The notes beneath the pieces are model-generated. The model was not told the origin of the DNA and ran no database searches. It saw only the letters and a program-made list of their open reading frames with translations. Positions 25,195 through 50,975 of a stretch of DNA of 64,000 bases are shown here, one piece after another. Each line of letters starts with the position of its first letter. Within the stretch, counting starts at the first letter, position 1. A program made the translations under genes and the position numbers. Source of the DNA: Caecitellus pseudoparvulus (Eukaryota; Protista; Bigyra: Bicosoecida); the NCBI GenBank assembly GCA_965644315.1, contig CBFFRQ010000096.1, positions 1 through 64,000 of the forward strand, given 5' to 3'.

Positions 25195-25216
25195 TGCACC
25201 ATGCCGCGCTAACATT

Positions 25217-25491: not shown

Positions 25492-25630
25492 ATCGTGACT
25501 GATATGTGGCGTCTGTCAACAAGCAGCGGTGCATTCAGCTTTCCACCAATACACAATGCAACAAGCAGGGGGCTGAGTTGAGGGAGCAGAGCAGCTCAGG
25601 ACGAAAGAGCATGCAAAGAGGTATTTTGGC

Positions 25631-25743
25631 CAGGGATCTCAGGGGTGTCCGGCTTTGCACCCTCCGAGTGTCCGGCTGAAGGGGGCCTTCGGCCCCTCCA
25701 GCCGGACACCCGGTGTCCGGGAACTGGCCTTCGGCCAGTCCCC
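25631..25743. repeat. hAT left TIR plus subterminal GTGTCCGG repeats and GGCC-TTC-GGCC hairpins
   Basis: GTGTCCGG/CCGGACAC occurs four times here and twice at the right end (about 50866, 50896). Two stem-loops: GGGGCC-TTC-GGCCCC and ACTGGCC-TTC-GGCCAGT. Confidence 0.8.
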
Positions 25744-26589
25744 GTACCCCCCTCTTCAAAGACCTCAATAAACGATATCCTGTACTCCATAGCAACGCTT
25801 CATGGGTAGAATATTTCTTCCTGCGCCATCCTCTGTGAATCTGTGTGCCTCTGAAAGTGCTTTACGATGAAAACCGAATCTACGGCAGAGCGTACAATCA
25901 ACTTTATGATCTTGACAACTATTCGATTAGATATTGCTGCAGTTTTGCATCTGGGCAGGCAATCTTGTCCTACTCAACACGGTACCAAGCCCAAATAGTG
26001 CAAAATGTGTGCGATACTGCTTGTACGGCACTGTTTCGGTTGGCGTGGTGATCTGTGGTCTGTGTGGCGTCGCTTGCCTGGATGCCCAGAGCTCCGCGTA
26101 GACAATCCTGCACAAGGAGCAAAAGCACTGCGGGGTGAAAAAGAATGCAGACACCCTTTGCGGTGAATCCTTGCCGAAATCGCGCAACAGGGAAGGAGTA
26201 TCACGCAGGAGGGGCGCCCTCATTGAGCTCCCGGATCCACTCCCTTGGACCAGCCTTGAAACTTGTCTCTGCAAGCAGTGACTTTGGCCTGAAAGCATAG
26301 CCCGCAAAGAACAGTGCCTCAAAATGGCCTCTGCATTGGAAATTTTGCTTCAACACCTGATCAGCTCCCCCACACCACGAAGCGTTCCCTGCTTCCCTCC
26401 ACCGGACCTCAGCGCCTGCTTGGGACCGCTTGGTGGCGCTCCTCCTGCACGAACCCTCTTCTTGCCACGAACAGCTCGGCGAAAAGGGGCAGCTGAAGCC
26501 CCAGCAAGTGAGCATGCACGCGCAGCAGGAGCAACTCGAGAGAAAACAAGCTGGACAGCTAGCCCATCCGGGCTCTTGACGAGTGCCCG

Positions 26590-27271
26590 GGGGGGATGGC
26601 ACACGCACGGCGGTGCAATCCAGCAATAATGCCTACAAGTAGGCATTATTGCCTTAGATATATCAACAAATATATTATATAAAATTTCTTTTAATATGTG
26701 CTTATCTATATCATTAAATATATATAATTAAATATCAACGAAGTTAAAATATTATTAAAACTATTTAATAAACAACTAAGAAAAAGAAAAAGATAAATTA
26801 TATAATACTATCTTAATAATATCTGCGAAGCTATGATTTATACGCTTTAGCGTGTAAATCTCTAATATGATAATTTTAATTATCCTATCATTCATAACTA
26901 TGATATATCTAAACTATATTTAAATATAATGTTCTTAAAAATGTTCTAAATAAAGTTCAAAAAAATCAATACAAAATTTATAAAAATGAAAGAGTATAAG
27001 ATAAAATTTAAAAAAGTTCAAAAAGTTCAAAAGTTCAAAGGGATTTCTAAGATTTCAAAAAAAAATATTTCAAAAAAACCAAAATGCTTGAATTCTTGAA
27101 CTTTTTGAACAGCAATATAATAAAAATGAAGGAGTTAAAATTTCCAAAAAAATAATAAAAAAATATATCTCAATAAAAATAATGAGGATTTTTTGAACTT
27201 TCTGAACAAAACCAAAAATGAACGAGCCATAAATTATATATATACAAACATTTATAAAAAAAATAGGTTTA
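26590..27271 (+). repeat. Left terminal inverted repeat of the virus (682 bp)
   Basis: Reverse complement of 48734-49415 at every segment compared by eye, from GGGGGGATGGCACAC to AAATAGGTTTA. Confidence 0.95.
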
Positions 27272-27290
27272 TTTGTCAGTTTAAAAATTA

Positions 27291-27294
27291 TCTA
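27291..27294 (+). promoter_or_regulatory. TCTA giant-virus late-type promoter motif (one of 12 copies in the element)
   Basis: AT-flanked TCTA 10 nt upstream of ATG 27305. Confidence 0.7.
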
Positions 27295-27304
27295 AGTTAT
27301 ATTA

Positions 27305-27604
27305 ATGAGCTATATTAAAAGCAGTAATAAGAAATCTCAACAGAAAAAGAAAGAACCAGTCTATAGCACTGATGATGTTGATAGATTTGAATCTATGGAA
27401 CTTGAAACATTAGCCACAGAAATTGATAAGAAAGGAAGTAAGATAAAAGATATTAAAGCACTTCTCAAATCTCACAATAAAGAATATAAAGCAATGTATG
27501 AATTATTAAATGAAAAAATGATATCTCAGAATATAAATGAAATTCATGTTGGAGATAATATATATAGTCTCCGTAAGATTAAACAATTGGTGGTTGAAAA
27601 ATAA
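27305..27604 (+). CDS. Small viral coiled-coil protein resembling small NCLDV proteins (DUF5760-like)
   Basis: 99-aa ORF with TCTA promoter; helix followed by MISQNINEIHVGDNIYSL. Family call is tentative. Confidence 0.6.
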   Translation: MSYIKSSNKKSQQKKKEPVYSTDDVDRFESMELETLATEIDKKGSKIKDIKALLKSHNKEYKAMYELLNEKMISQNINEIHVGDNIYSLRKIKQLVVEK

Positions 27605-27621
27605 TTTTATAAATATATATA

Positions 27622-27894
27622 ATGATTGTTGAAATTAAAAAAAGCAATAGAAAAAATAAAAGATATGTTGCTATATTTGATGATGAAACAAAAACACATT
27701 TTGGATATGATGGAGGTCAAACATATTTAGACCATCACGATAAAACTAAAAGAGAAAATTATAGAAAACGTCATAAGAATGATTTGAAAACTAATGACCC
27801 TAAAAGAGCAGGGTATTTATCATACTATATTTTATGGGGTGAAGAAAAGGATTTAGACAGTGCAAAAAAAGCGTATAACAAGAAATTTTTTTAA
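27622..27894 (+). CDS. Tlr6F-like (DUF5754-like) protein typical of PLVs, virophages and NCLDVs
   Basis: KKSNRKNKRYVAIF...THFG...YLDHHDKTKRENYRKRH...AGYLSYYILW pattern. Confidence 0.75.
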   Translation: MIVEIKKSNRKNKRYVAIFDDETKTHFGYDGGQTYLDHHDKTKRENYRKRHKNDLKTNDPKRAGYLSYYILWGEEKDLDSAKKAYNKKFF

Positions 27895-27906
27895 TATGTT
27901 ATAATA

Positions 27907-28800
27907 ATGATAAATAATATATTAAAAAAAATGGGTATATTCAAAGGTCTTGATAAGGATGAATTAAAAGAAATAACCGATACACCAATAAAAGATAAGA
28001 AATATCAAACACCACATAGAAAAGCATTTAAAAAAGATGCTGTTCATTATACAGATTTACTAATGCTACCAAATGATAATGGTTACAGATACGCTCTAAC
28101 GGTTGTTGATTCTAGAACACGTTATGTAGATGCTGAACCATTAAAAACAAAAAAAGCAGCTGATGTATTAGAAGCATTACAAAAAATTTATAATAGAAGT
28201 TATTTAAATGATGTTGAGTATATTTTACATGTTGATAATGGAAGCGAATTCAAAGGTCAGTTTGCGAAATACTTCAAAGAAGAAGGTGTTATTTTAAGAG
28301 TTGCCAGAACGTCAAGACACCGACAACAAAGCGTTGTGGAACATTTAAATAATGTTCTTGGAAGAATGATAATGATTACACAACAAAGACAAGAATTAGA
28401 AACAGGAACTGAAAATAAAGAATGGGTTGAATTATTACCAGAATTTATTAAACAATACAATAATGAAATGAAAAAGAAACAAATAAAAGATAAAGTATTT
28501 TTTGAAATGGAACCAAAATTAAAAGGTGTCAAAGATATTTTAAAGAAAGGAACAAAAGTTAGATTACAATTAGATAGACCAGAAGACGTCAGAGGTAAAA
28601 GATTAAAAGGAAATTTCAGAGCAGGTGATATAAGATTTAGTATTAAAATATATACGATAGATGGTTTTTTAATAACACCAGGACAACCAATTATATATTT
28701 AGTAAAAGAAATACCATTTACAGGATTTACAAGAAATCAGGTAAAAGTTGTTGATGACAATGAAGCAAAAATAGATAAAATCACATTAGATTTTGATTAA
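27907..28800 (+). CDS. Retroviral-type (rve) DDE integrase
   Basis: Catalytic motifs YTDLL, HVDNGSEFKG and SVVEHLN, plus GYRYALTVVD and WVELLPEFIKQYN. ORF intact. Confidence 0.95.
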   Translation: MINNILKKMGIFKGLDKDELKEITDTPIKDKKYQTPHRKAFKKDAVHYTDLLMLPNDNGYRYALTVVDSRTRYVDAEPLKTKKAADVLEALQKIYNRSYLNDVEYILHVDNGSEFKGQFAKYFKEEGVILRVARTSRHRQQSVVEHLNNVLGRMIMITQQRQELETGTENKEWVELLPEFIKQYNNEMKKKQIKDKVFFEMEPKLKGVKDILKKGTKVRLQLDRPEDVRGKRLKGNFRAGDIRFSIKIYTIDGFLITPGQPIIYLVKEIPFTGFTRNQVKVVDDNEAKIDKITLDFD

Positions 28801-28834
28801 ATTAAATATAATATACTTTACTATATTTAATTTA
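28798..28834. terminator. AT-rich 13-bp hairpin at the integrase stop (giant-virus-type 3'-end hairpin)
   Basis: TAAATTAAATATA (28798-28810) and TATATTTAATTTA (28822-28834) form a perfect inverted repeat between convergent transcription units. Confidence 0.6.
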
Positions 28835-28946
28835 TATATATATATCAGCTACGAATCAATGGTGAGTATAAGAGTTTAAGCTGGTGACTATATCTTATAC
28901 CACAATATACTAGATATTATTTTTTTAAGTATGTTTTAAACCTATA

Positions 28947-29585
28947 TTATAAATTCTTTTGAAATGTTCTTAATTCATCTAATACATGCTTATATTTTAT
29001 TTTATGTTTATCTTTATAGTTTTGAATTTCTATATATTCTTTAAGAATTTTAGAAGACCATTTTAATTTTGGAAATAATGTTATGAAATCATAACAGAAA
29101 CAATCTTTTTTTTCTAGTAATCCCATATCCCATTTTTTATTAGGAAATTTATATAACCAATTAGTATTAAAATTATCAGATTCAGTAATAACTCCAAAAT
29201 GCCAATACATAAATGGGCAATCCCATCTCATATCAGGACATTCTATAACCCAAATAATATCAAAATTTTTACTAAGTGTCAATTCTACCATATCCCATTT
29301 CCTATCTGAAAATTGTTTTAAAAATTCAATATCGACAAAATCGTAAAAAAAGCTGCAAAAGTCCCATTTTTTATTAGGATATTTTTTAACAAATTCTAAA
29401 TCATCTTTTGTTTTAATAAAATGTGAAAGATAATAATAATCCCAATCTTTATGAGGATATTTTTTAACAAATTCAAAATCCAAATTATTTAACCACGATA
29501 TTTTTTGATAATCCCATTCTTTGTGTGGGTGTTCCATTATGTATTCCAAATCGCATTCATAATATTTAAATTCATTATTATTCAT
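28947..29585 (-). CDS. Viral repeat protein with about seven (K)YPxKxWD units
   Basis: EHPHKEWDY, KYPHKDWDY, KYPNKKWDF, QFSDRKWDM, ECPDMRWDC, KFPNKKWDM, LFPKLKWS. Confidence 0.8.
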   Translation of the reverse strand: MNNNEFKYYECDLEYIMEHPHKEWDYQKISWLNNLDFEFVKKYPHKDWDYYYLSHFIKTKDDLEFVKKYPNKKWDFCSFFYDFVDIEFLKQFSDRKWDMVELTLSKNFDIIWVIECPDMRWDCPFMYWHFGVITESDNFNTNWLYKFPNKKWDMGLLEKKDCFCYDFITLFPKLKWSSKILKEYIEIQNYKDKHKIKYKHVLDELRTFQKNL

Positions 29586-29622
29586 ATATATATACCTAGA
29601 TAAAATATATTTTTTAAACCGT
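29583..29622 (-). promoter_or_regulatory. Duplicated promoter block ACGGTTTAAAAAATATATTTTATCTAGGTATATATAT-ATG
   Basis: Near-identical copy at 29902-29938 and a partial copy at 46544-46568. Confidence 0.75.
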
Positions 29623-29625
29623 TTT

Positions 29626-29904
29626 TTAATTAAATCTGTTTCTTCTTTGTTCTTGTTTTTTCAAAGTTATATTAGAATTCTTTTTTATTATTTTTTTCAT
29701 TTTATTATATTCAATTCTTTTCATTTTCGGAGTTAGTGCTTTGAATGACTTTAAAAATTTTGGTTTCAATTTCTTAAATATTTTAATATTTTCTCTTATC
29801 AGTTCATTGGAATCTGTATAATTATCTGTTTCATCAAAGTAAAAATCATATACATTTATGAAATTATTAATATCGTTTATATTATTAATATCATACTTTT
29901 TCAT
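29626..29904 (-). CDS. Small basic viral hypothetical protein
   Basis: 92-aa ORF preceded by the TCTA promoter block. Confidence 0.65.
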   Translation of the reverse strand: MKKYDINNINDINNFINVYDFYFDETDNYTDSNELIRENIKIFKKLKPKFLKSFKALTPKMKRIEYNKMKKIIKKNSNITLKKQEQRRNRFN

Positions 29905-29940
29905 ATATATACCTAGATAAAATATATTTTTAAACCGTAT

Positions 29941-30504: not shown

Positions 30505-30539
30505 ATATATATAATCTTAGATAATATTTTTTATATATT

Positions 30540-33110: not shown

Positions 33111-33157
33111 ATTATATATACATTATATAAAAATTTTTAGAGTTTATATAATATAAT

Positions 33158-33997: not shown

Positions 33998-35276
33998 ATA
34001 TAAGACTATAGAAAATAATAAAATAAAACTAAACTTTATTATTTTATATATATAACAATTATATTTATTCTACAACTTGTGCGGAACCTTTACCTAATTC
34101 TAACTGTCTTTTAAATCTGTATAAGCATACAAGTTGTTTTGATGCTGAGTCAGTAATTGCTTCGGGAGTATTAAATTCAGTAACTAATACACTAGTACCA
34201 ACGAGAGAATTAAAGCCATTAGATACAGCATTTTGAGAATCTTCCGGAGTTTTTAAGAATAAACCGCCTAAATATTGACATGTATTAGTTGATTGAACCA
34301 TTTGTTTAGAGTATTCAGAAGCATAAGAACGAGAATAGAAATCAGGTTTAGCACATCTAACGACACCTTCAAAATGGTCTACGTAATTAGATTCACTTTG
34401 TGCACCATTTACATTAACGTAATCTTGACCGGTAAACTGTAAGCGATAATCAGAAACATAATTTAAATTACCATTAACAAAAGAGTAATCACGAACTGGG
34501 TCAAAAGTTGCAGCAGAAATGTTTTTAAGTTTATTAGCACCTGGTACAGTTTTATATACAGGGAAAATTAAAGAACTAATAATATCACGTTTTTTAATAT
34601 TGAATTGATGAGCATGTGTAGTTCCTAACGCAATAGTTTGAAACTGGCAATCATAACCGTGGAAACGATTTACAATACCTTTAGTATTTGTACCCATAGG
34701 AGAGACTTTTTTTAACATTACTTGAGAGCCCAAATCAGTGAGGTGATATGCTTCAAAAGTAAATTTAAGATTAGACAAAGTATAAGAAATATCAGTAGCA
34801 CCAGTTGGTGGTGTAGAACCAGCTTTAAATAATAAAGGCAAATTATCTTTGAATACTATTTGAATATCAATAGGTGTAGATGATGTAGGTAGTAATTTTT
34901 TTAAGTCTAATCCAAAATCTCTTAATGGAATTGAGAATGAATAACTTTTAGTACCATCCGCAACTAATTCAACGTCTCTTAAGGTGCGTCACGGATTGGT
35001 GGATCAAGGCGAGATACCAACGGCTTGTGTCAATCCTGTGAGATCAACACATCGACTTAGAATCTTTCTATGTTTGCGCTAGTTGACTGTCGGGAAAAAG
35101 AGAATGTACCATGCCTGAGGAACTGTTTTAGCCATTTTGGCGAGATCAACGAGCCGAACCTTGATTTTTTGCCCCAGGCGTTAGTGAGAAAGGGGTCGCA
35201 CGCTGTCGAGACAGGAAATCAACCCTGAGAGAGTCAGCACTGCAAGAGCGGCGATTAGGACTCTGGAAATCAAGCA

Positions 35277-37118
35277 TTGGTACAATTATTCGGGTGTTGT
35301 GGCATTTTCGAGGCAATGGAGTCCACCCAATCACGCTTGGTGCAGCCGAGCGTTTCTGTCACCCCGACAACGGCAGCATCCGTTGAGCGACGGGCCTCTG
35401 CGCCACATTCTGCATGTTGCGTGATTCAACATGTCGGTCACAAGTTGATCAAAAGGGTATACCATAAAACACAAAAGCTGCGGGGCACGAAACGTCGCAA
35501 CATCGACCGCAACGACTCGATGGAGGGGGCCAGGCTGCACCCCAAAATCCGCAAGGGGACACCCACCTACGAATTCCTCACATCGGGCGAGTGCCTCACC
35601 TTCATGCGCATGAGAGCAAGAAATTTAGCCAAAGCCCTCTCTGGCTTGATATCGGACAGCTTCTTGAGGTGGAACGCCCTCAGGGACATCCAGAATGGGC
35701 GTGAAGCCGACCTCTTGCTCGGGGTGATGATGGTGTGTGCCGGGCGCAACCGCCAAGAGATCACGTCTAGGCTGAGCATTGCCGCTACTACTCTCCAAGA
35801 CAGCATTCCTCGGTTGATTCCAGTGCTGAAGACCTTCTTTTACAAAGCGCTGCCCTGGGCAGTGCTTCCAGAGCACCGCAGAGAGGCGCTTTCCTTCCAT
35901 GGTGGACTGGCTCCAGGGCTGGTAGGGTTCGTAGACGGCCTGACATGGGAGACGAAAGCAACTTCTTCAGACAAAGAGAACCGCATCTGGTACAGCAACC
36001 ACCAATCGATGTACGGGTACAACTTTCTGTTGTTCTGCAGTGTTTCGGGGAGGGTTATATGGATCGAACCCATGGGCAAGGGCAACACAGTGTCTGAGAT
36101 TGCAGCCGCGCGACGAGCAACCGAGCGCATGCTGCGCTCAGGCGCCATCAAGCAAGGCGAGTACTTTGTCGGTGACGGTGTATTCCAGGGAGTCAGGCCT
36201 GCTGTGCGGCACCTTCCGGGCAACAAGGCGTTGGAGAAGATGGCGGCCCGAGTTCAGTCTCTGTGGGTCTCCTCGCCAGCCCCTGGCTCTCTGCATTCTC
36301 CACGGGACTTGGCAAGAGCAACGGCTTCCGCCCTGGCACACAAAACTGTGCAGCGTGAGATCTTCGTGTCAGGTCGCCAGGTTGTCGAGAACTGTGTGAA
36401 GGAGTTCAAGACGGTGTGTGGTCTCGTCCGATCGTCCAGTGTCAGACCATTGCAAGCGCAAACCAAGGAAAAAGAGATCAGAGACATGGGGTACATTACT
36501 GCTGGGATGCTCGCTTTCCAACAAGCAGAGGGGCACCGGGTTCCTCGGTCAGAGCAGTGGCTCCACATCCGCGGTTCGCGTCAGCCAGCACTCGTCCTGT
36601 TTGAGCTGTTTGCATCCTTGGCTGGAGATTGTCCTGCTTCTAATCGCCGTGACAGTGAACTTGACGCAAGCCTTCCGAGCGGCATCGCGAAACGAAGGAG
36701 CGTATCTTTTCTTCATGACGTCTTACGGCTGCTTCGCGGGGCCGAGTTGGGTACGGCCGGGAGGCCTTCACTGGAACGAAGCGATATTGAGGCTGCTACT
36801 CAGCTGCAGCAAGTGCTCGCCTGGTCGGAACAAGGGAACTTGTCTCCTCTTGTAAGTGGCATTTTGTGCGGTGGTCTCACAGAACTTGGCAGGCTGAAAA
36901 AGCAGCGCAGGCAGGTAGCTGTCTCGCCACGCTCTGGTGTCGCATCCCCTGGGGGGCCTCCTCTCCTGGCATCATGGCATCGCCACACTCTCCACCTGGA
37001 TACTGCCGCCCCGCCAAGACTGACGACGACAAGGTACGCCCACAGGAAGTCATGGATCTTGAAAAGCTGTGGGGTGCTGCAGCAGACAAGGCTGCTCTTG
37101 CCGGCAAGCCAGTTGTAG
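35277..37118 (+). CDS. Harbinger/ISL2EU-like DDE transposase (first ATG 35317; may splice or shift into 36866-37459)
   Basis: DDE_Tnp_4-like triad LVGFVDG, YFVGDGVF and RQVVENCVKEFK, plus WYSNHQSMYGYNFLLFCSVSGRVIWI. Confidence 0.85.
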   Translation: MVQLFGCCGIFEAMESTQSRLVQPSVSVTPTTAASVERRASAPHSACCVIQHVGHKLIKRVYHKTQKLRGTKRRNIDRNDSMEGARLHPKIRKGTPTYEFLTSGECLTFMRMRARNLAKALSGLISDSFLRWNALRDIQNGREADLLLGVMMVCAGRNRQEITSRLSIAATTLQDSIPRLIPVLKTFFYKALPWAVLPEHRREALSFHGGLAPGLVGFVDGLTWETKATSSDKENRIWYSNHQSMYGYNFLLFCSVSGRVIWIEPMGKGNTVSEIAAARRATERMLRSGAIKQGEYFVGDGVFQGVRPAVRHLPGNKALEKMAARVQSLWVSSPAPGSLHSPRDLARATASALAHKTVQREIFVSGRQVVENCVKEFKTVCGLVRSSSVRPLQAQTKEKEIRDMGYITAGMLAFQQAEGHRVPRSEQWLHIRGSRQPALVLFELFASLAGDCPASNRRDSELDASLPSGIAKRRSVSFLHDVLRLLRGAELGTAGRPSLERSDIEAATQLQQVLAWSEQGNLSPLVSGILCGGLTELGRLKKQRRQVAVSPRSGVASPGGPPLLASWHRHTLHLDTAAPPRLTTTRYAHRKSWILKSCGVLQQTRLLLPASQL

Positions 37119-37459
37119 TCGGCAAGTACAATCATGATCCTGAGCTGTCCTACCCTCGTGGGATCGTCTACGCTCTTATTGAACCCACTCGAGACACCGC
37201 CACTTTTGAGGAGTCAGAAGAGGCGTATGATGTGTGGTACTATGACAAGTACGGAGATGAACTCCTCGAGACCCTCCCTGATGGGCAGACCGGAGGGCAC
37301 TTGCTCACATCCCTCCTTGAAGCAGAGACCCGCGACGTGGCAAAGAAAGACTACACGTGGCTCCCACCAGAGCACTTCAAGGAGGACTTTGACGGGAGTC
37401 AGCTTGTCGCGTACATGATGGATTGTCAGTCCTACAACTACGGCTACGTGAACGAGTGA
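36866..37459 (+). CDS. Acidic ORF overlapping the transposase 3' end (probable last exon or third gene)
   Basis: The C-terminal ~140 aa (QEVMDLEKLW...YNYGYVNE) has protein-like composition, unlike the end of the 613-aa frame. Its stop abuts the stop of the convergent ORF. Confidence 0.5.
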   Translation: MRWSHRTWQAEKAAQAGSCLATLWCRIPWGASSPGIMASPHSPPGYCRPAKTDDDKVRPQEVMDLEKLWGAAADKAALAGKPVVVGKYNHDPELSYPRGIVYALIEPTRDTATFEESEEAYDVWYYDKYGDELLETLPDGQTGGHLLTSLLEAETRDVAKKDYTWLPPEHFKEDFDGSQLVAYMMDCQSYNYGYVNE

Positions 37460-37464
37460 AACAA

Positions 37465-38898
37465 TCACGGGGAGTCAGAGTGCCCTCGGCGGCGTCTGTT
37501 GTATCTCGCTACGTCTTGGAGAAATGCATCTCCTGTGCTTGGCACGTTGTCAGTGAAGTTTGGGCGAGTTCTCTTGTGACCGCCAATGGTGGGGCGGTCC
37601 GAAGCCTCGGGTGAAGGAGTTGGGGCGGGACCACCTAATCCTTCTTGCCGCATCGCACCAGAAGAGCTCGGTGGGGCACGAGAAGAAGATGGTGACCTCG
37701 AAGCACTTGCAGTGTCAGCGGGAATGTGCCCAGTTTGTGAAGAAGCTATGACACTGAGGAGCTCCACAGCTCTCCTCTGATCTGCCCGGCCCTGGTCCAC
37801 TTTGTCCACGAGCAGCACGAGCATCTCTGCCATTTTCTCGAATGGTGCAAGAAGGGCAATCGCATCACGAGCAAAAGCATTTACTGCCGAAGAAATGCCC
37901 ATCCCCACCAGCGCCGATTGACGCGCAGCTTCTGCTCGGGCAGCACGTTGCGCATCGGGCTCCACGGGCTCTTCCCCAGGCTGTGACTGTCCGGCCAGAT
38001 CGTGCGAGTCATGAGGCAGATGAGGATTCTCGAGCAACGCGCTGTGGCTTTGGGTGCTACTCGCAAAAGACGAATCCAAGGAGCTCTCTCCGCTGCCCTC
38101 AACTGGACCCAGCCCTCCGGTGGGCGGCGTGGGTTGGGGGGCGGGTGCTTGCCCCAGAGATATCCCGAGGGAGGGGACAGTAGGAACGTTGCTGGCACTT
38201 CCTTGCGATTCTTGACTTACAGCTGACCCTTGGATTCCGGGTGGCCCCAGTGAACCCTGCTGGGTGTGGAGTGTTTGCATCGGCAAGCCAACAGCGTGGC
38301 TCTGGACCTGCGTGAAGGTTGCCAGGCTCGCACGAGGGGCGTTGTGGAGGTCCAAGAGTCTGCGGACCAACCACATGTCAATGAGAGCATGAAAGGAAAT
38401 AGGTACGATGTCCTCGTAAACACGGAACATGGTCTGCACCATGTCCGCGACGGTTGGGTAAACAGTCCGGCTGGTGCTCGGTAGGCCTCGCATGGCACAT
38501 GCCTTGTCCCACAGCTCAGTGAACACGTCTTGGAACTCAGCGTGTGCCTTGTTCAGGTTCTTCCTTGTTGCATGGTAAAACATGCAGTGGGTAGCATGAA
38601 ACACGGCTGATGCATGTGCCTTGCACTTCGGCCGGGAGCACAGTCCATGACTGTCCAGCTTCTGGAAGGAGAATTCGGGGATGAGAGCGGGGTCCAATAC
38701 AAAGACGGGGGCATTTCTGTTCGAAAGGCGCAGGATTGCGTCGCCCAGGATGTGTCCATCCACGGGGATGCCCAATTCAGAGAGCATGGTAGCTGGACTT
38801 TGTAGGTTGTTTGCACCACTCGGGTCAAAGGGGCGCTCCCGAGACAGACAAGAGAAGGAAAGTGAGCCAGGAGTTGTGCCCAACATGCCCCCCGTCAC
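37465..38898 (-). CDS. Second (accessory) gene of the Harbinger-like element; Cys/His cluster; probably has upstream exons
   Basis: 477-aa frame, open back to an AG acceptor near 38930. Contains CSRPKCKAH...HATHCMFYH, a disordered middle region and a basic C-terminus. Harbinger elements typically carry a second DNA-binding gene. Confidence 0.65.
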   Translation of the reverse strand: MTGGMLGTTPGSLSFSCLSRERPFDPSGANNLQSPATMLSELGIPVDGHILGDAILRLSNRNAPVFVLDPALIPEFSFQKLDSHGLCSRPKCKAHASAVFHATHCMFYHATRKNLNKAHAEFQDVFTELWDKACAMRGLPSTSRTVYPTVADMVQTMFRVYEDIVPISFHALIDMWLVRRLLDLHNAPRASLATFTQVQSHAVGLPMQTLHTQQGSLGPPGIQGSAVSQESQGSASNVPTVPSLGISLGQAPAPQPTPPTGGLGPVEGSGESSLDSSFASSTQSHSALLENPHLPHDSHDLAGQSQPGEEPVEPDAQRAARAEAARQSALVGMGISSAVNAFARDAIALLAPFEKMAEMLVLLVDKVDQGRADQRRAVELLSVIASSQTGHIPADTASASRSPSSSRAPPSSSGAMRQEGLGGPAPTPSPEASDRPTIGGHKRTRPNFTDNVPSTGDAFLQDVARYNRRRRGHSDSP

Positions 38899-40020
38899 CG
38901 GGGCGTCCTTTGTGTTGTAGAGAATCGCCTATTTGGCAAAGGAGGGGGGGAAGTGTGACGGTATGCGTAGCGATTTCCGCACACCGTTTCAAACCCTCAC
39001 AGCTGCAAGAATGGTGTGCTCCGGTGGACTCAATGCAGTCCCCCTTTGTGACTTCGCACGCCGATCTAGCCTCCCTTGGGCTTGAAGTCCCGCCTGCTTT
39101 CACGGTAGGGGAGACCTTGACCTGTGAGCAACGCTCAAAATCTTGCCGTTATGCTCACCATTCAAACTGTGCTCGAGACTTGCTGAGGAAAGTACCAAGA
39201 CCAAGGCACTGAGTGGCAATTCAGTGCAAAGCGGAGAAACAGATGAGTATCCGTTTTAGGCGAACGAGCGGGCCTACGTTGCGCTGGGGCAGGGCTGCCG
39301 ATCGAGACACGAGCACAAACGGCTACAAACACCCGCGTACTGCCGCACCCTCAGTTGCACGAAAAAAAGAACACCCAACAAGGCATACATGAGTGGATGG
39401 GAGGCGCTGGTAAATTCATATTGCACAACACCTCCTCACTGTGGAAATCGACTCCGCTGGTGACAAATCACAGGGGCCCCTGGAGTTCAAACCAACCCTG
39501 ATCCACCAATCCGTGACGCACCTTAAGGTTTTAACATTGTTAATAGCCATTTCTTCACCAGATAAATATAATTTTTTGTAAGCTTCAGCAACTAACCAAG
39601 CATTACGATTTAATTTCACAACCGGAGCACCACCAACATAAATAATAAGCTGTTCTATCATTGCACTTGCATCACCGCAAAATTTTACATTTTCTTTAGG
39701 GTCCTGTCCTGCAGCTACTTGTGCACCTTCAACTTTAATATTACCATCTAAAGTACCAGTAGATAAATCTAATACATTAGCACCGGTTTGAATAGTTGTA
39801 TTAAAATCTTTATTAGCATTACCAAAACCATTTCTAGTTCCTTGAGGGTCATATTCCATTCTTTGTCTAGAGTGAGTTAATCTGTTAATTTTTGTTTTTG
39901 CTCCTTCAAGCACACCACCTAAGAAGTAAATTTCTTGTTCTTGAGATGTCATTATATAATTATACTTAGAAAATATTTTTAAAAATTACCTAGACTAGAT
40001 ATTTTTTAAAAGTATTTCAT

Positions 40021-40758
40021 TTATTCAGGAAATCCATTAAATATTTCTTCCATTTTTTTATTATATACTTTACCAGTTTTTTTGTTAATTAAAATGAAAC
40101 TATATTTTTCAGATAAATGATTAAATACTAAATCCTTAAATTCATCTTCATTCATGAACTGACTAAAGTTTTCATCGTATACTTTCCAACATTCTTTATC
40201 GTTAGCATTCCAATATAATGAAATCAAATTACTGTTTAACATTCTTACGTCCTGCCCTAGATAATAATATTTTTGAGTTGCTATAATACATCCACAGCGT
40301 TTATGCCGTCCTGATGCAAAGAGCTCACTTAGTAAATTTGTGCCGTGATTTGTATTCATTGCTTTATTATATGCCATATCATCAAAAATAAACAAATTCG
40401 GAACTTTTGCGTCCATACTTCTATATTCTCCATCTAATTCTTCCCAGTCTAGAGTTTTATATATACTCAATTGGTCTTCACTAATATCAAACTTTTGAGC
40501 CATTTTAATAATATTATTTATTGTGGTTTGAGTTCCTGATACAACAATAATTTTAGATGAATCATTTTTAAAATAAAAATCTTTACACCATTGCCATAAT
40601 ACATTATGAATAAATTGTGTTTTACCTGCCTCAGATGGTCCCACTAAAACAGCCCTAGGAAGAGCTCCGACACGCTTATCAATTAAGTCTTTGTATTTTT
40701 TGTCTTTTGTTATATCATCCTCTTCAAATTCAAAAACTTTAAATTCACTATTAGCCAT
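40021..40758 (-). CDS. A32/FtsK-HerA genome-packaging ATPase
   Basis: Walker A VLVGPSEAGKT, Walker B LFIFDD, and ELFASGRHKRCGCIIATQKY (GRH and TQ motifs). Confidence 0.95.
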   Translation of the reverse strand: MANSEFKVFEFEEDDITKDKKYKDLIDKRVGALPRAVLVGPSEAGKTQFIHNVLWQWCKDFYFKNDSSKIIVVSGTQTTINNIIKMAQKFDISEDQLSIYKTLDWEELDGEYRSMDAKVPNLFIFDDMAYNKAMNTNHGTNLLSELFASGRHKRCGCIIATQKYYYLGQDVRMLNSNLISLYWNANDKECWKVYDENFSQFMNEDEFKDLVFNHLSEKYSFILINKKTGKVYNKKMEEIFNGFPE

Positions 40759-40779
40759 TATTATATATTAGATATTTTT

Positions 40780-42915: not shown

Positions 42916-42961
42916 ATATATAATAGTAGATAAAAAAAATTATATATCTAAACATTTTAAT

Positions 42962-43459: not shown

Positions 43460-43479
43460 TATAATAAAACATAAAATAT

Positions 43480-43740: not shown

Positions 43741-43744
43741 TATT

Positions 43745-44596
43745 TTAAACTAGATTATTTTTTTTTTTAAAACCTATTGATGGTTCAAATATACTACCAC
43801 CTCTTGAAGGCGTCACGTTATTTATTAAATAATCTATTGAATGTGCTTCAACTAAATTACTTGGTCCTGGTCTTGGTTTTAATACTATAGTTTCTGGTAT
43901 TAATGCAATTGATGATTCAGCTATGATATCACCCTCCATAACATAAGAACGAATAATATTTGAATCAAATATTTTTTTTAGATTGTTTTTAATACCTTCT
44001 AATTTTTCACCGATTTCATCTGCCCCTTTTCTTACTGCTTGTGTAGGTGATGAACCTATATTAAAAACTATTGCTGGAATACCTGTTTCTGATGATGCTA
44101 AAACTGCAATAAATCCACCTAATGAATGACCTGTAAAAATAAATTCTTGAACGTTCATGCTACTCAATACACTCATTATTTTTGTTAATCTTTCAACACT
44201 TGCTATTTTAATAATTGACTTATCAGAACCTAGAATAATTGCTAAATCATCCATAAAATCTACTGGGTTTAATTGTGTTCCTCTAAATCCTATAATTGCT
44301 TTTACTTTATCGCCTTCTAAATCTAAATATACGGCTATTCTATTACTTGATAATGTTTCATTATATATTAAGTTCTCTAAGATTGGTTTTCTTTCGGTTT
44401 TTGTTTTATATGCTTCACGTGATACTTTAGCACATTGATAAGCTTCATATGGTATAATTGGTTTATATGTTCCACGGTTTGAATTGTTCTTATTTGTATT
44501 TCTACTTACGGTTGAGACCTGTAATGGCTGTTCGTCAGCAGGATTTCCAAGAAAAAAATCATTAAAACCATCAACTAATAATTTGATACCTTCCAT
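43745..44596 (-). CDS. Class 3 lipase-like alpha/beta hydrolase
   Basis: IIGFRGT, FTGHSLGG nucleophile elbow, GDII (Asp) and AHSI (His). Confidence 0.92.
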   Translation of the reverse strand: MEGIKLLVDGFNDFFLGNPADEQPLQVSTVSRNTNKNNSNRGTYKPIIPYEAYQCAKVSREAYKTKTERKPILENLIYNETLSSNRIAVYLDLEGDKVKAIIGFRGTQLNPVDFMDDLAIILGSDKSIIKIASVERLTKIMSVLSSMNVQEFIFTGHSLGGFIAVLASSETGIPAIVFNIGSSPTQAVRKGADEIGEKLEGIKNNLKKIFDSNIIRSYVMEGDIIAESSIALIPETIVLKPRPGPSNLVEAHSIDYLINNVTPSRGGSIFEPSIGFKKKNNLV

Positions 44597-44647
44597 TATA
44601 TTAATAAAGAAAATAAATATAACTTATTTTATTAAAACAAATTATAT

Positions 44648-46546
44648 TTAATATTTGATTTTATTTTCAATATCCATTCCATTCACACTTCTAATAGATA
44701 TTTTATCTGCTGTATATTCAATCTTTAATCCACCCATATCAACTTTTGATAATTCTTTATCATTTCCTATACCTTTAATTTTTGTTATATTTATATCTCC
44801 ATCACATATAAAACCATCTGTATGACATCTATATATTTTATCATGTTCTAAATTTTCCATTATTCTTGAAATATACACACGCCCCATACCTGTTAAAAAT
44901 GGAGCAATTCTTGCCATAGGTGTTTTATAATATTGTTTTTGCTTTGCATTAAATAAGTGTGTATCATTATAAGGATGTATTCCTTCAATATCATTTGAAC
45001 CACCTTTATATTTTTCATATGTTTCAATATAAACATTTCTCTGAGATAATAACCCCCATAATTTATTTAATAACATTTTTGATACTTTGTTTTTTGGATT
45101 CTTCTTTTTTAGGTCGTAATGGTCATTAATATATTTTCCGAATAATTGTTTGCCTGATATTAAATCTTTTCGGTCATACATTATAGCATTACAGCCTACA
45201 TCATCTCTCATATGAATTGTGTATCCTAATTCACGAGCACGATTTAATTCATAATGTGTATAAAAATCATTGTTTTTGGTGTTGAAAAGTAATTTATTTA
45301 CATTTCCTAAAATTTCTGCTCTATAGATTCCATATTTAAAATATTCTGGTAATTGTTTATTTTCAATTGTTGTATATTGACCTTCTCTTAATGGAAACAT
45401 TACTTTGGCAGATTGCATTATATAAGGATACATTGAATTGACATCATAACATTTGACATTTTCATAAACTCCCTCTTTGAAATGTAATAAACCACCTGTT
45501 AAACAATATTTAATAAAGTTTGATTCTTTTTCTGATATATTCTCCATTCTAACTTTTTGAAAATTATAAAACATTTGTTGTAAAATATAACCTGTTATAC
45601 TTTTATAGTTGAGTAAATCTAAATTTAATTCTTTGACATATTGTTTATATTTTTTATATTCTTCTATTAAATCTTTATCAGGTTTTACATTGTGAAAATG
45701 ACGTTTTTCATATTTCAATATGTTTTGTTGAAAATCTACATAATCATATGTTTTAATTTGTAATCCATCATAAGCATCAACAACATTTTTTGATATTTTA
45801 TATACTAGTAATGGATATTCATTTTTATTTTTTCTTATTACTTTGAAACCTTCTTGTTGTTTATAAATGTTTGTATAATGTCCGTTCTCTAATTTTAAAT
45901 CAACATTTATATTTGAATCATAAGACGAAATATAAGTTGAACGTTCAGAAGAACCAAATACATTTATTCTTATATTTAGTTTCTCTTCTAATTTAGGTAT
46001 TAGAATTACAGGAACTTTAGCTTCTCTATCTAATTTTAAATAATTCTTTAATCTCTTAGGGTATTTCATATTTGGAATATCTCCAATAACTCGTTTAATA
46101 CAATTATATAAACAATCATTATGTTTATCGCTTCCTCCTTCTGTGCTTGTATCTTTATAAGTAATTGATATCATATGTGTCCCTAAATCATCTAATAAAT
46201 TCATATCTTCACCATCTGTATATTCATCAGCAAATTTCTTGATACTTAGTTTTTTAGGGTCAGATGAAAAACCTTTGTTAATTGATTTCCAACCAATATC
46301 TAATAATACTGCAACATGAAATTCTTTATTCTTCTTTTTCATTTCTTTTGTTATTGTTTTAATGAATTTATCTGAATCATCAACTGAACTTTTTTGATTT
46401 TTCTTAGATGAAATATAATTCATAACTTTTAATTTTTCACCATTTTTTAGTTTTAGTTCTCTTCCTTTGAACTGTCTGAACTTTTTAAAAATCTTTTTTT
46501 GAGATTTCTTGGATTTCTTGGAATTGTTATTTTTGGTTCGTGGCAT
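44648..46546 (-). CDS. polB: Protein-primed family B DNA polymerase with N-terminal terminal-protein region and OTU-like protease domain
   Basis: YDVNSMYP, KMLLNKLWG and HTDG polymerase motifs. OTU-like HNDCLYNC ... ENGHY. Confidence 0.95.
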   Translation of the reverse strand: MPRTKNNNSKKSKKSQKKIFKKFRQFKGRELKLKNGEKLKVMNYISSKKNQKSSVDDSDKFIKTITKEMKKKNKEFHVAVLLDIGWKSINKGFSSDPKKLSIKKFADEYTDGEDMNLLDDLGTHMISITYKDTSTEGGSDKHNDCLYNCIKRVIGDIPNMKYPKRLKNYLKLDREAKVPVILIPKLEEKLNIRINVFGSSERSTYISSYDSNINVDLKLENGHYTNIYKQQEGFKVIRKNKNEYPLLVYKISKNVVDAYDGLQIKTYDYVDFQQNILKYEKRHFHNVKPDKDLIEEYKKYKQYVKELNLDLLNYKSITGYILQQMFYNFQKVRMENISEKESNFIKYCLTGGLLHFKEGVYENVKCYDVNSMYPYIMQSAKVMFPLREGQYTTIENKQLPEYFKYGIYRAEILGNVNKLLFNTKNNDFYTHYELNRARELGYTIHMRDDVGCNAIMYDRKDLISGKQLFGKYINDHYDLKKKNPKNKVSKMLLNKLWGLLSQRNVYIETYEKYKGGSNDIEGIHPYNDTHLFNAKQKQYYKTPMARIAPFLTGMGRVYISRIMENLEHDKIYRCHTDGFICDGDINITKIKGIGNDKELSKVDMGGLKIEYTADKISIRSVNGMDIENKIKY

Positions 46547-46576
46547 ATATATATACCTAGATAAAATAATTTTTTT

Positions 46577-46777
46577 TTAAACCCCTTTTTTAAGATTGTT
46601 TTCCATATTCCTTATATGTTTTTTGGTTCTACAATGTTTAGGAAACTTATATTTTGGCACATATTTATCACAACATTCACAATATATTTTGCGTTTCATT
46701 TTTTCTAGTATACGCTCCTTATTTTCTGCATAGTATTCTTTTTGATATTTTTTCATATCCGTGATTTTCTTTTTCAT
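46577..46777 (-). CDS. C2H2-type zinc-finger protein
   Basis: YCECCDKYV...KHCRTKKH. TCTA upstream. Confidence 0.8.
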   Translation of the reverse strand: MKKKITDMKKYQKEYYAENKERILEKMKRKIYCECCDKYVPKYKFPKHCRTKKHIRNMENNLKKGV

Positions 46778-46830
46778 TACACTTATATAGATTATTTATT
46801 TTTTAAACCTAAAATAAATAATATATATTT

Positions 46831-48705
46831 TTAAAATTCTAGAATTATTTTACCAACTGTTAATCCATCAAATTTTTTTAATGCTTTCTTTGATGTATCG
46901 TCTTTTGGTTCAAATTTATCTTCTTCGTCGTATTCGTCGTCGCTTTCTTCATCTTCACTATCACTCTCTTCTTCACTATCGCTCTCAACTTCCACTGGTT
47001 TAGTTTCACTTTCAATATCAACTGGTTTATTTTTAAGTTGTTCTTGTAATTCTTTTAGTTGTTTTTGTAATTCTTCAATAATTTTATTACTAGTTTCATT
47101 CTTTTTGGTTAATACATTATTTTTACTAATTAATATTTTAATTTCATCTCTTAACGTATCATCATCTTCACCATCAAATATATCTTCGTCTTTTTCTTCT
47201 TTATCAATTTTTACTTTAATATGTGTAAATAAACCTTTCTTTCTTTTTATTCCATATAAATTTTGTTGTTCTTTATTGCAGTATTTTTCACTAACATAAT
47301 TAATATCATGTGCTTTCATATCATTTACAAATGATTTCATGCCTAATTTTTCATATTCTGAATTGAAACTTTTAAACATTTCCAATAATGCTTCTTTTGG
47401 TATTGTGTCTGTTTCGTCTGTGGTAAGTTCTAAACATGTTTCAATAAATTCATCATACGGGTCATTAGTATTTAAAAACTCTTTAGTTGATAATTGAATT
47501 TTCTCGGGTGTCTCTGGTAAATTTGTATTAATACTTTTTACGGTATATTCTATTAAAATTTTAATCAGAGCACATTTTAATTGTGTATTATCAAATTTAT
47601 CAATTAATTTATTATCCTTTCTAAAATACTTAATATTATCAACTTTTCTTTTATCATTTTCTTCTAAAAATATATTTTCCATTGATATAACTTCAGTTCT
47701 CCTTGATACACCACCATCAATATCAATTTTTAATGTTGCCTCGTTGGTTAAAATAAATATAAAACCGTTGAGAATTGTGTTAAATTGTCCATCAGTAAAT
47801 AATCTTGAAACTGTAATATTTCCATTTGCTAATTGTTTGAAAATAGATTTCTTCATTTTCTTTTTACCTTGTTCGTCAATAATTAAAAATTTATGATATG
47901 GTTGAATTGAGTTAATAATTTTAGATGGTTTGTTTCCGTCAGTATCAGCAGTTAGTAATGCATTCTCTAATTCTTGGACCATATAAGGAAATACTTTTTG
48001 GATTAATTCAAATAATGTATTTTTACCATTTGACCCTTTACCGGTTAAGATAAAGTTCTTTTGCATTTTTGTTATTGATTTGCCTAAAATTACACGACTT
48101 AACATATCATACATATAACCCATATCATCCTTATTAAAAAATGAGGTTAAAACATTATCAACATATTTTACTGATTCTTGAGATGGTTCAACATAATTAT
48201 AGTTTAATAATGTCGCTTGTGTAATAATAGTATTCTTTGGACGTGTTGTTGAAAATTCACCTGTTGTCAAATCTAAACGACCATTTAAAAAATTCAATCC
48301 TGTATTATCACTATCAAAAATTATTGAATCATTCTTAAATATGTTGTGAAGACCAGAACATAAATTATTAAGTTTATTTAAATTAATCAATGATGAGATT
48401 TTTAATTGTATTAAATTTGCATATGATTCTTTATCGGTTTCGTATATCTTGTTTAATGATGCTGTCATACAATTATACAAATAATTATAAAAGATTTTTT
48501 CTGCTGATAATTTTTCATCATGTAATTTTCTGTATGTTCCATTATCACATTTTACATATACATTGTTTTGATTAATAATAACATATTCTTTAAATAAATC
48601 TATCAATACATTTTGTCTATCAATGAATTCCTTTTTAAAATTTAGAAAATCATTAAAAGTAAAGAGTTTGTTAAATTCGTTTGTGGTTTGATTTATAGCT
48701 GTCAT
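46831..48705 (-). CDS. Superfamily 3 (D5-like) helicase
   Basis: LNFLNGRLDLTTGEF (D5_N-like), Walker A GKGSNGKNT, Walker B IIDE, motif C ILTN and IDGGVSRR. Coiled-coil and acidic tail. Confidence 0.93.
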   Translation of the reverse strand: MTAINQTTNEFNKLFTFNDFLNFKKEFIDRQNVLIDLFKEYVIINQNNVYVKCDNGTYRKLHDEKLSAEKIFYNYLYNCMTASLNKIYETDKESYANLIQLKISSLINLNKLNNLCSGLHNIFKNDSIIFDSDNTGLNFLNGRLDLTTGEFSTTRPKNTIITQATLLNYNYVEPSQESVKYVDNVLTSFFNKDDMGYMYDMLSRVILGKSITKMQKNFILTGKGSNGKNTLFELIQKVFPYMVQELENALLTADTDGNKPSKIINSIQPYHKFLIIDEQGKKKMKKSIFKQLANGNITVSRLFTDGQFNTILNGFIFILTNEATLKIDIDGGVSRRTEVISMENIFLEENDKRKVDNIKYFRKDNKLIDKFDNTQLKCALIKILIEYTVKSINTNLPETPEKIQLSTKEFLNTNDPYDEFIETCLELTTDETDTIPKEALLEMFKSFNSEYEKLGMKSFVNDMKAHDINYVSEKYCNKEQQNLYGIKRKKGLFTHIKVKIDKEEKDEDIFDGEDDDTLRDEIKILISKNNVLTKKNETSNKIIEELQKQLKELQEQLKNKPVDIESETKPVEVESDSEEESDSEDEESDDEYDEEDKFEPKDDTSKKALKKFDGLTVGKIILEF

Positions 48706-48733
48706 ATATATATTACTAGAGATTTTTTTTTTT

Positions 48734-49415
48734 TAAACCTATTTTTTTTATAAATGTTTGTATATATATAATTTATGGCTCGTTCATTTTTGGTTTTGTT
48801 CAGAAAGTTCAAAAAATCCTCATTATTTTTATTGAGATATATTTTTTTATTATTTTTTTGGAAATTTTAACTCCTTCATTTTTATTATATTGCTGTTCAA
48901 AAAGTTCAAGAATTCAAGCATTTTGGTTTTTTTGAAATATTTTTTTTTGAAATCTTAGAAATCCCTTTGAACTTTTGAACTTTTTGAACTTTTTTAAATT
49001 TTATCTTATACTCTTTCATTTTTATAAATTTTGTATTGATTTTTTTGAACTTTATTTAGAACATTTTTAAGAACATTATATTTAAATATAGTTTAGATAT
49101 ATCATAGTTATGAATGATAGGATAATTAAAATTATCATATTAGAGATTTACACGCTAAAGCGTATAAATCATAGCTTCGCAGATATTATTAAGATAGTAT
49201 TATATAATTTATCTTTTTCTTTTTCTTAGTTGTTTATTAAATAGTTTTAATAATATTTTAACTTCGTTGATATTTAATTATATATATTTAATGATATAGA
49301 TAAGCACATATTAAAAGAAATTTTATATAATATATTTGTTGATATATCTAAGGCAATAATGCCTACTTGTAGGCATTATTGCTGGATTGCACCGCCGTGC
49401 GTGTGCCATCCCCCC
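48734..49415 (-). repeat. Right terminal inverted repeat of the virus (682 bp)
   Basis: Mirror of 26590-27271, ending GTGTGCCATCCCCCC. Confidence 0.95.
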
Positions 49416-49420
49416 CCCGG

Positions 49421-50580
49421 CCCTGCTCCTGGCGCTCAGGGCGGACTGGAGAGTTGCACACTTTGAAGCGTGGGGCCAGCCATTCCTTGCTGCACTGAGC
49501 CACCAGCTGCTGGTGGGAAAGCATCAAGAGATCGCTGCCAAGCAGTAGTGCATGTGCCCTGGTCCTCTTACCACAGGCATCCCAAGGTCAGCACGGAGAA
49601 GAAGCGCTCAGCGCTTGCACTTGTGGCCGGGGGCCCAACAGCTCGTTACCCCCTCCTCCATGCCTCCAGATGCGTGCAGAACGCGGCTAGGTTTGTGCTG
49701 TCGCTGCTAACCGCACCGGATGCAAGCACTCGTTGACTCCCACAGATCGCAACGAAATCACGCCAGTCACCCACAAGGCTCCTCTGCCAGTTTCATGCGC
49801 AAATCAGCAGCAATGTGGCCAGCTGCTCGCCGAATGTGGCAGTGCGTCGTGTTTGAAGTGGTTTCTGAGCCCCACCAGGTCATCAGCTGGTGGTGCTCAG
49901 GGGACATGACCTTCGCAATCTGTTGCGGCGACAGCCCAATCGAAGCGAAGCTCTGCACCAAAAGCATGTGAGCTATTCGACAGAAAGACCTGCTGTCACA
50001 TGCGATCGTCTCTGCCGAGACAGGCACTGTCTGCAGAAGCACCTGTGCCTCATGTACGAGGTTCCGTGCATCACCAAGCAGGGCTCTGTGCGCCTCACTG
50101 CCAGGCTGAGCTTTCATGGGCTTCTCAACACTGAACGTCTTGGCCAGTGCAAGAACTTCTTGCTTGGTCATGCTATGCATGGCCGGCAGGTGCTTTCTAA
50201 GAAGTGTTTCCTTACGTGCTTCAGCAAAGCACTTCAGGGTCTCGGACCACAGGATTGGTTTTCCAGTGCGCGAATATGACCGCTGGAAATCCGCGAGACC
50301 CGTTCCTTTTTGCCTTCCACCCCTTCAGCCCAAGAATTTCAAGCAGGGGGAAGTCGCTAATGCGTAGATCTGGGCAGAAAGCCCTCCAAGTCTGAACTAC
50401 AGCCTTCCCCTGGTTCATGGTCTTGGTATCGCAGAAGTGACGGCATGCCTCCTGGCTGCAAAGCACTCGCAAGAGGTAGCCATAGTGGGCAGGACCTTGC
50501 ACCCAGGTGAGAAATGAAGAACTGGAGGGAGCTTAGTGACAGTCATAGCTTTTTCAGACACTGCCGCGCCCTCCGCCATC
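49421..50580 (-). pseudogene. hAT transposase pseudogene; the C-terminal tail continues at 26590-26350 on the other side of the virus
   Basis: Fragmented frames with stops and frameshifts. NLAAFCTHLEAWRRG*RAVGPPATSASAERFFSVL matches the hAT C-terminal dimerisation domain. After a frameshift, KRTRAHALLLGSDLLML...QEQG-RALVKSPDG reads open across the reconstructed empty site. Confidence 0.7.
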
Positions 50581-50975
50581 ATGCAGCGAAGGTGAAACGT
50601 GACCGAAACCCCTCATGACAGCACCTCCGTTGCGGACGAATCTGGTTGAGTTTCGGAGCCTAGAGGCGTAAATATCAAGACCAGTGTACAAAGCATTGAT
50701 GTGATTTGGTGCATTGATGGCAAAGTGGCACTTGACCTTGCTCGGGAACCAGCGCTGGCAGGCAGGTGGAGGAGGATGAGCGTCTCCCAGCGCCTTGGAC
50801 ACGGGCGACGAGGGGGGGGGTCACAAGGGGGGGGGGCAACCCCCCTACGGTTGGGGTGTCCGGCATCTCAGCAAAAAAGGTGCGGAAATAGCTTCCCGGA
50901 CACCCCTGAGATCCCTGATTTTGGCATGACTTTGCTTCTCCCCAGCCCCGCCACCACACACACACGCAGCACCTC

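Follow-up and report, generated by a model that had tools for sequence, protein, structure and literature searches.

Three nested layers at one locus of Caecitellus pseudoparvulus: a putative hAT element, a Polinton-like virus and a PHIS-like transposon

Mobile elements lodged inside endogenous virophages and Polinton-like viruses (PLVs) have already been published (PMC8547959, PMC12220804, PMC12166617). Ngaros reside in about one of four endogenous mavirus-like elements (EMALEs), and 18 of 29 EMALE sites lie near repeats (PMC8547959). More generally, mavirus-related elements, including PLVs, are described as widespread (PMC13215967). Here we analyse 64,000 nucleotides of the bicosoecid Caecitellus pseudoparvulus (contig CBFFRQ010000096.1 of assembly GCA_965644315.1, positions 1 to 64,000; hereafter the window), in which an element with terminal inverted repeats (TIRs) contains a PLV whose major capsid protein gene is in turn split by a DNA transposon. 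Judged by titles and the first part of abstracts, a literature search that missed most subscription journals and Repbase returned no paper on a TIR element that harbours a PLV whose capsid gene carries a DNA transposon. We regard the nest as a clean, well-resolved example of a known process, one that places three insertions in relative order. Two further observations may carry more weight than the nest itself: a PHIS-like family with a 4-bp target-site duplication (TSD) and a PLV bearing the TCTA motif.

Three nested layers and the order of their insertion

A repeat finder and a script located three inverted-repeat layers, one inside the other, each flanked by its own direct repeat (Table 1). 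The nesting claimed by the first-pass annotation is thus confirmed, with six intact ends and three junction duplications all present. The names hAT and Harbinger, which that annotation gave to the outer and inner layers, are interpretation, unlike the geometry. Host DNA has a GC fraction of 0.62 and the outer arms one of 0.56–0.57; the virus drops to 0.27, and the inner element rises again to 0.56, so that an AT-rich island in GC-rich host DNA is itself broken by a GC-richer block. The outer element sits between a JmjC gene ending at 25194 and an unnamed open reading frame (ORF) ending at 51052, and its 8-bp TSD, ATTTTGGC, lies outside a perfect 22-bp TIR. By chance, an 8-mer match in host DNA has a probability of about 2–6e-5, and 64 kb should contain about 0.001 perfect inverted pairs of 22 nt. 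The perfect inverted repeat of the middle layer is 683 nt as detected and reads as a 682-bp TIR with the TSD CCCG; a 5-bp TSD, CCCGG, is possible and would require unequal G/C runs. The inner layer has a perfect 24-bp TIR with TTAA on both sides. A 4-mer match alone has a chance probability of 0.005 and is weak by itself; therefore, the two inner layers needed outside evidence.

For this we used four of 23 listed public sequencing runs (X1, X3, X5 and X7), runs with small shares not being among them; all four consist of contigs, which were compared with window positions 22000–41500, and the figures below come from the records listed. The strongest holders of window sequence are coded organisms and marine metagenomes. 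Host contigs in three of the four runs (X1, X5 and X7) match up to 25630, where the left TSD ends, and then run on with 2692, 2331 and 4492 further letters, respectively, while X3 contigs are too fragmented to show whether the host leaves there. Contig ends at 26585–26587 in X1 and X5 run on into right-arm sequence of the outer element. Therefore, virus-free copies of the outer element exist, with a single 4-bp site, CCTG or TCTG, at the point of virus insertion. A joint from 34977 to 39522 omits exactly 4544 nt in X5 and X7 (none is listed in X1 or X3), from which it follows that related viruses without the inner element exist. In addition, the two halves of the capsid gene are in phase with no stop between them and align end to end on uninterrupted homologs of 443–445 residues at 93–94% identity.

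Three independent, sequential insertions very probably explain every junction. First, a non-autonomous TIR element of 2457 bp, probably a hAT, would have landed between two host genes, mobilised in trans; the TSD and TIR show this step, and polymorphism is inferred. Second, the 18.3-kb PLV inserted into this element, probably by means of its own rve integrase, duplicating 4 bp, as the TSD and the virus-free outer copies show. Third, a young PHIS-like cut-and-paste transposon would have entered the viral major capsid gene, either here or in a progenitor copy, also duplicating 4 bp; this step is shown by the inner-free relatives of the virus. The order of the first two insertions is fixed because the virus TSD lies in outer sequence and virus-free copies exist, so the earlier proposal that the outer element predates the virus holds. 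The inner insertion is later than the origin of the virus.

The virus records in X1 and X3 have no letters differing from the window and reach 18–28 nt into the inner TIR at either end. This exact copy has 0.32–0.36 of host depth in X1, and in X3 a depth of about 29 compared with 34–36 per host contig. A level of about 0.3–0.5 of host depth is consistent with one heterozygous locus, and the result is likely a single-allele, dead-end pile-up.

Several points weigh against a succession of three insertions. No listed record of the four runs spans any junction within 22000–41500 by at least 31 nt on both sides, and that range does not reach the right-hand virus and outer junctions. Contig depth is a rough guide and cannot be read as a copy number. 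The window itself may derive from sample X1 or X3. Finally, that the host contigs leaving at 25630 stem from an empty allele is a likely reading, drawn from the point at which the match stops.

Identity of the layers

Without the virus, the outer element measures 2457 bp, which bears out the predicted virus-free family of about 2.46 kb. Subterminal repeats of GTGTCCGG are found at 25645, 25668, 25713 and 50856, with reverse copies at 25702 and 50896. The element had also been described as non-coding, and we found nothing to the contrary: none of 17 arm frames (of 56 listed) matched transposase families, none of the three ATG-initiated arm ORFs matched Pfam transposases, and codon-likeness did not exceed 0.06 across 48 frame windows, compared with 0.10–0.12 for the two ORFs of the inner element. 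Since there is no trace of a transposase, the name hAT is drawn from the ends only. These display an 8-bp TSD (at one site only), a 22-bp TIR and subterminal repeats, and hAT elements are described as having 8-bp TSDs, short TIRs and short GC-rich subterminal repeats (PMC3355664). Neither a hAT transposase (BED, hATC) nor a relic of one matched in the arm frames; non-autonomous copies need none. Judged by its ends, the outer element is probably a hAT, and the first-pass label retains this part of its support and lacks a transposase match.

It is unlikely, on the other hand, that the element is a non-autonomous member of another superfamily with 8-bp TSDs (Zisupton, Merlin or P), which would change the label only. 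Such TSDs are also made by Zisupton (PMC12730594), those of Merlin are 8–9 bp long (PMC4482050), and no hAT domain was found. Against this, the short TIR, the TSD length and the short GC-rich subterminal repeats all fit hAT. So, we presume, does the CAG start of the element. The summed depth of the left arm in X1 exceeds 1200, compared with 77 for the host, with many shared differences; the outer element is therefore an older, multi-copy, diverged family. As a separate observation, X1, X5 and X7 contain a variant of its TIR (25631–25643) with a different flank, which suggests that a sister subfamily occupies other loci.

The virus is 18,282 bp long without its insert. Pfam searches of its ORFs identified an rve integrase, an A32-like ATPase, a lipase, pPolB and a D5-like primase-helicase. 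Length and TIR both fall within the range given for PLVs, 14–40 kb with TIRs of several hundred bp (PMC12220804), and the characteristic A32 ATPase, pPolB and rve integrase are all present, the ATPase just under the curated cutoff. The integrase shows DD35E spacing (D50, D110, E145). It has no chromodomain, nor is there a chromodomain remnant downstream; 15 of 29 integrase homologs carry one (PF00385).

The model of P0008, an uninterrupted homolog of the split gene, was built on 18 sequences and has a predicted local distance difference test score (pLDDT) of 83. In Foldseek comparisons, it matched iridovirus and PBCV-1 capsids in PDB (E 2e-14 to 1e-13) and viral capsids in BFVD; the Sputnik capsid ranked 37 in PDB, and virophage capsids ranked 20 and 25 in BFVD. 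On this model, the split gene is predicted to encode a double-jelly-roll major capsid protein, as expected of a PLV. The capsid sequence profile retrieved nothing meaningful from PDB, and the family is small (17 representatives of 362–443 residues), with no informative name for any of the eight looked up. In its present state, this copy is unable to produce full-length capsid protein; a supply in trans, or excision of the inner element, would be needed.

No maturation cysteine protease rose above noise among the scanned viral ORFs, where a divergent one could escape. Therefore, the middle layer is assigned to the PLVs. An EMALE was considered and rejected, given that no protease was found and that the capsid sequence is unrelated. 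No relatives of the capsid, integrase, ATPase or inner transposase were found in IMG/VR. Of ten window proteins, two were present in the protein collection; one of them clusters with an NCBI protein labelled Symbiodinium sp. KB8, to which it is 100% identical over 391 residues, and mavirus-like capsid genes occur in an assembly under the same label (PMC10120064).

In 12 of 17 viral ORFs, TCTA occurs 13–18 nt upstream of the ATG, often in the form TTATCTAGGTATATATATATG (background 0.11–0.13, P about 1e-7). The 17 are the non-overlapping AT-rich ORFs among 50 listed, once frames belonging to the inner element or the arms, short frames overlapping others and the start inside the split capsid gene had been set aside. 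We first spotted the motif by eye, but it has been defined independently as the late promoter motif of mavirus and Cafeteria roenbergensis virus (CroV) (PMC8547959). It marks CroV-inducible EMALEs, the response to CroV being confined to EMALEs that bear it (PMC10945749), and it lies upstream of genes here as it does in type 4 EMALEs. The motif suggests that the virus family probably uses a giant-virus late promoter, and the family is probably still active on its own. By analogy, TCTA in a PLV with a divergent capsid might predict a virophage-like life on a CroV-like giant virus, a prediction that we put forward tentatively. Our literature search, which missed most subscription papers, found no TCTA in PLVs beyond the EMALE paper.

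Several other viral features deserve mention. The 856-residue repeat-rich protein is likely fibre-like. A 279-residue ORF adjoining the capsid gene is a candidate minor capsid protein by size and position only; it has no Pfam match, and its single-sequence fold (pLDDT 32) is uninformative. An ORF of 212 residues (28947–29585) consists of repeats of about 24 residues with a K.WD/W motif and no Pfam match. Two small ORFs match DUF5754 (27622–27894, E 1e-14) and, at 46577–46777, a zinc-finger-like domain. Rfam yielded no matches in 22000–41500. In X7, related virus copies without the inner element cover 26557–41500 at a summed depth of 200–270, compared with 37 for the host, which suggests that X7 holds a multi-copy PLV family.

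The inner element encodes a DDE_Tnp_4 transposase, whose Atlas neighbours are eukaryotic DDE_Tnp_4 clusters. Near 36950, a one-base difference in a G run breaks its frame in the window, and the entire depth of both X1 and X5 disagrees with the window there, so the break is likely an assembly indel. Across runs, the element is nearly invariant (0–1 other letters over 4 kb), with a depth of about 7.7 times that of the host in X1 and about 4.1 times in X5, and zero cover in X7. Record 21 of X5 holds a near-identical copy elsewhere with CAAG on both sides. The duplication is thus 4 bp at both observed sites (TTAA and CAAG), each inside TC-NNNN-GG. Despite TTAA, piggyBac was rejected in view of the DDE_Tnp_4 transposase and the second site; a 2-bp TSD was also rejected, as it would need a variable terminal base. 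Bacterial elements of the IS5 subgroup make 4-bp duplications.

PIF/Harbinger is defined by a TWA TSD and a Myb/SANT ORF, and other PHIS groups have TSDs of 2–3 bp (PMC4482050); for PHIS as a whole, TSDs of 0, 2 or 3 bp are given (PMC12730594). By the criteria of PMC4482050, the sequence reads as PHIS-like but not PIF/Harbinger: the TSD is not the 3-bp TWA, and the 473-residue ORF2 has no Myb/SANT or other Pfam match. Hence the earlier name Harbinger was right as to the transposase and does not fit the 4-bp duplication, which is not fixed to TTAA, or ORF2. PHIS groups are defined by TSD (PMC4482050, PMC12730594), so a 4-bp TSD would add one, and on the strength of two sites we lean towards an added group in the superfamily. 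No 4-bp Harbinger TSD emerged from a literature search that missed most subscription papers and Repbase, nor from the accessible text of PMC3627910. The inner TIR had no matches in viral contigs. Contigs in X1, X3 and X7 contain the left TIR, 13 letters and the right TIR (window positions 34983–35007 and 39497–39522), which together form a hairpin mini-element of 64 bp belonging to the inner family; it is present in X7 as well, a run that gives the full element no cover.

Compact, poor in introns and GC-rich, the host genes do not resemble those of dinoflagellates and may be those of a heterotrophic protist grown in co-culture, for instance a bicosoecid. Among the surrounding host genes, the one at 22138–25194 encodes a JmjC protein. 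By their motifs, we take those at 3299–5833 and 60216–61145 to encode a PPP phosphatase with EF hands and a malate dehydrogenase, respectively. At 10341–10535, a 15-nt tandem repeat encodes a GxYEE pentapeptide tail of a host ORF.

Table 1. Positions of the nested layers and their genes in the window.
Feature	Position	Strand	Basis or remark
Left 8-bp TSD of outer element (ATTTTGGC)	25623..25630		Direct repeat; host contigs of X1, X5, X7 cease matching at 25630
Left 22-bp TIR of outer element	25631..25652	+	Perfect inverted repeat
Left arm of outer non-autonomous TIR element, hAT-like by ends	25631..26589		GTGTCCGG subterminal repeats; no transposase match; multi-copy by depth
Left TSD of virus (CCCG)	26586..26589		Direct repeat; single CCTG/TCTG site there in virus-free copies
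Left TIR of PLV, read as 682 bp	26590..27271	+	Inverted repeat
rve integrase, 297 aa	27907..28800	+	PF00665, E 2e-8; D50-D110-E145 triad in place
Repeat-rich protein, 856 aa	30540..33110	-	Internal 274-nt repeat; weak BppL_N match
ORF adjoining capsid gene, 279 aa	33158..33997	-	No Pfam match
Split major capsid protein gene, 3' part	34065..34978	-	93% identical to uninterrupted 445-aa homolog P0008
Left TSD of inner element (TTAA)	34979..34982		Direct repeat; 4544-nt skip = 4540 + 4 in X5, X7
Inner PHIS-like DNA transposon, 4540 bp	34983..39522	+	Perfect 24-bp TIRs 34983-35006 / 39499-39522; near-identical copy at CAAG site
DDE_Tnp_4 transposase	35277..37459	+	PF13359; 727 aa in homologs; window frame broken near 36950
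ORF2, 473 aa	37465..38886	-	No Myb/SANT or other Pfam match
Right TSD of inner element (TTAA)	39523..39526		Direct repeat
Split major capsid protein gene, 5' part, 143 codons	39523..39952	-	94% identical to P0008 N-terminus
A32-like packaging ATPase	40021..40758	-	PF04665, E 1e-4, 22.3 bits (cutoff 22.8)
Class-3 lipase / alpha-beta hydrolase	43745..44596	-	PF01764
pPolB	44648..46546	-	PF03175, E 4e-11
D5-like primase-helicase	46831..48705	-	PF08706
Right TIR of virus, read as 682 bp	48734..49415	-	100% complementary to left
Right TSD of virus (CCCG)	49416..49419		Direct repeat
Right arm of outer element, terminating in 22-bp TIR 50896-50917	49416..50917		Inverted repeat; virus-free copies continue here
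Right 8-bp TSD of outer element (ATTTTGGC)	50918..50925		Direct repeat

Other routes to the nest

Apart from the label of the outer element, the alternative that fares best is that the virus already carried the inner transposon when it integrated here and thus served as its vector. It would explain why no inner-free form of the window virus is among the records listed for X1 and X3, and it agrees with the patchy distribution of the inner element, absent from X7. We nevertheless find it distinctly unlikely: the many near-identical inner copies in the same runs make local insertion easy, the element splits the capsid gene, and reactivated Cafeteria virophages are described as lacking their Ngaros (PMC10945749).

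The first-pass annotation also proposed that an autonomous hAT transposase could move the entire 25.3-kb unit in trans, as a Teratorn-like composite. The capsid-broken PLV would then be the cargo of a non-autonomous transposon moved by a host transposase, a fusion at its very start. The outer TIRs, subterminal repeats and TSD are all perfect, and the family is multi-copy and probably polymorphic, from which it follows that a transposase probably acted recently. But the depth of the exact virus copy in X1 and X3 is roughly that of one allele, the contig ends listed at the outer/virus boundary represent virus-free forms, and the arms bear no transposase trace. Furthermore, the outer TIR had no matches in viral contigs, and its four matches in metagenome contigs all fell in unrelated GC-rich ones, which lacked a partner TIR and had no blastn match to the window. 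The virus, having its own integrase, TIRs and TSD, does not need the outer element. We found no evidence of such mobilisation and hold it to be very improbable; the Teratorn comparison in this form is not sustained.

That an assembly artefact joined repeats of different loci is barely credible: all three layers are repeats, no listed record formally bridges a junction and at least one indel error is probable in the window, near 36950, but a chimeric join would not yield three matching TSDs 4.5–25 kb apart, the capsid halves are in register, and the X1 and X3 virus records enter the inner TIRs on both sides with no other letters.

Comparison with known systems

Three successive insertions, the reading that we prefer, place this locus beside several described systems. 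The closest are the EMALEs with Ngaros of Cafeteria burkhardae (PMC8547959, PMC10945749), likewise AT-rich endogenous viruses in a GC-rich protist genome. They share with the present virus TIRs, rve integrase, pPolB, primase-helicase, ATPase and TSDs of 3–5 bp; they too are interrupted by a GC-rich mobile element, often lie near repeats and, in type 4, have the upstream TCTA motif. The capsid here, by contrast, is of the 445-residue PLV type without a named relative, and searches yielded no cysteine protease. What is nested here is a DDE transposon of the cut-and-paste kind, whereas in EMALEs it is a tyrosine-recombinase (YR) retrotransposon, and the virus here lies inside a TIR element whose ends are resolved.

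Cryptophyte PLVs are likewise broken by GC-rich mobile elements of 4–9.5 kb, sometimes in essential genes, but those inserts encode reverse transcriptase, and the insert here is a DNA transposon (PMC12220804). Introners in dinoflagellate polinton-like elements are also transposons in integrated double-stranded DNA viruses, mostly gained after integration (PMC12166617). They generate introns, whereas the insert here is a 4.5-kb transposon with two ORFs that interrupts the capsid gene. This transposon shares DDE_Tnp_4, two ORFs, a short TIR starting with GG and a length of about 4.5 kb with the PHIS superfamily (PIF/Harbinger, Pangu, Nuwa and PHISTA), from which it differs in its 4-bp TSD, compared with 0, 2 or 3 bp, and in an ORF2 with no Myb/SANT match (PMC4482050, PMC12730594).

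As for Teratorn, it too is a DNA virus genome between the TIRs of a cut-and-paste element (PMC10175614). However, Teratorn is described as having its own active piggyBac transposase and 30–40 copies. Scanning of the arm frames gave the outer element here no transposase of its own. A unit of the Teratorn type would occur in many fused copies with different TSDs; depth, rough as it is, points to one allele in X1 and X3. At this locus, the outer element is non-coding, the virus is probably self-integrating, and the copy looks single.

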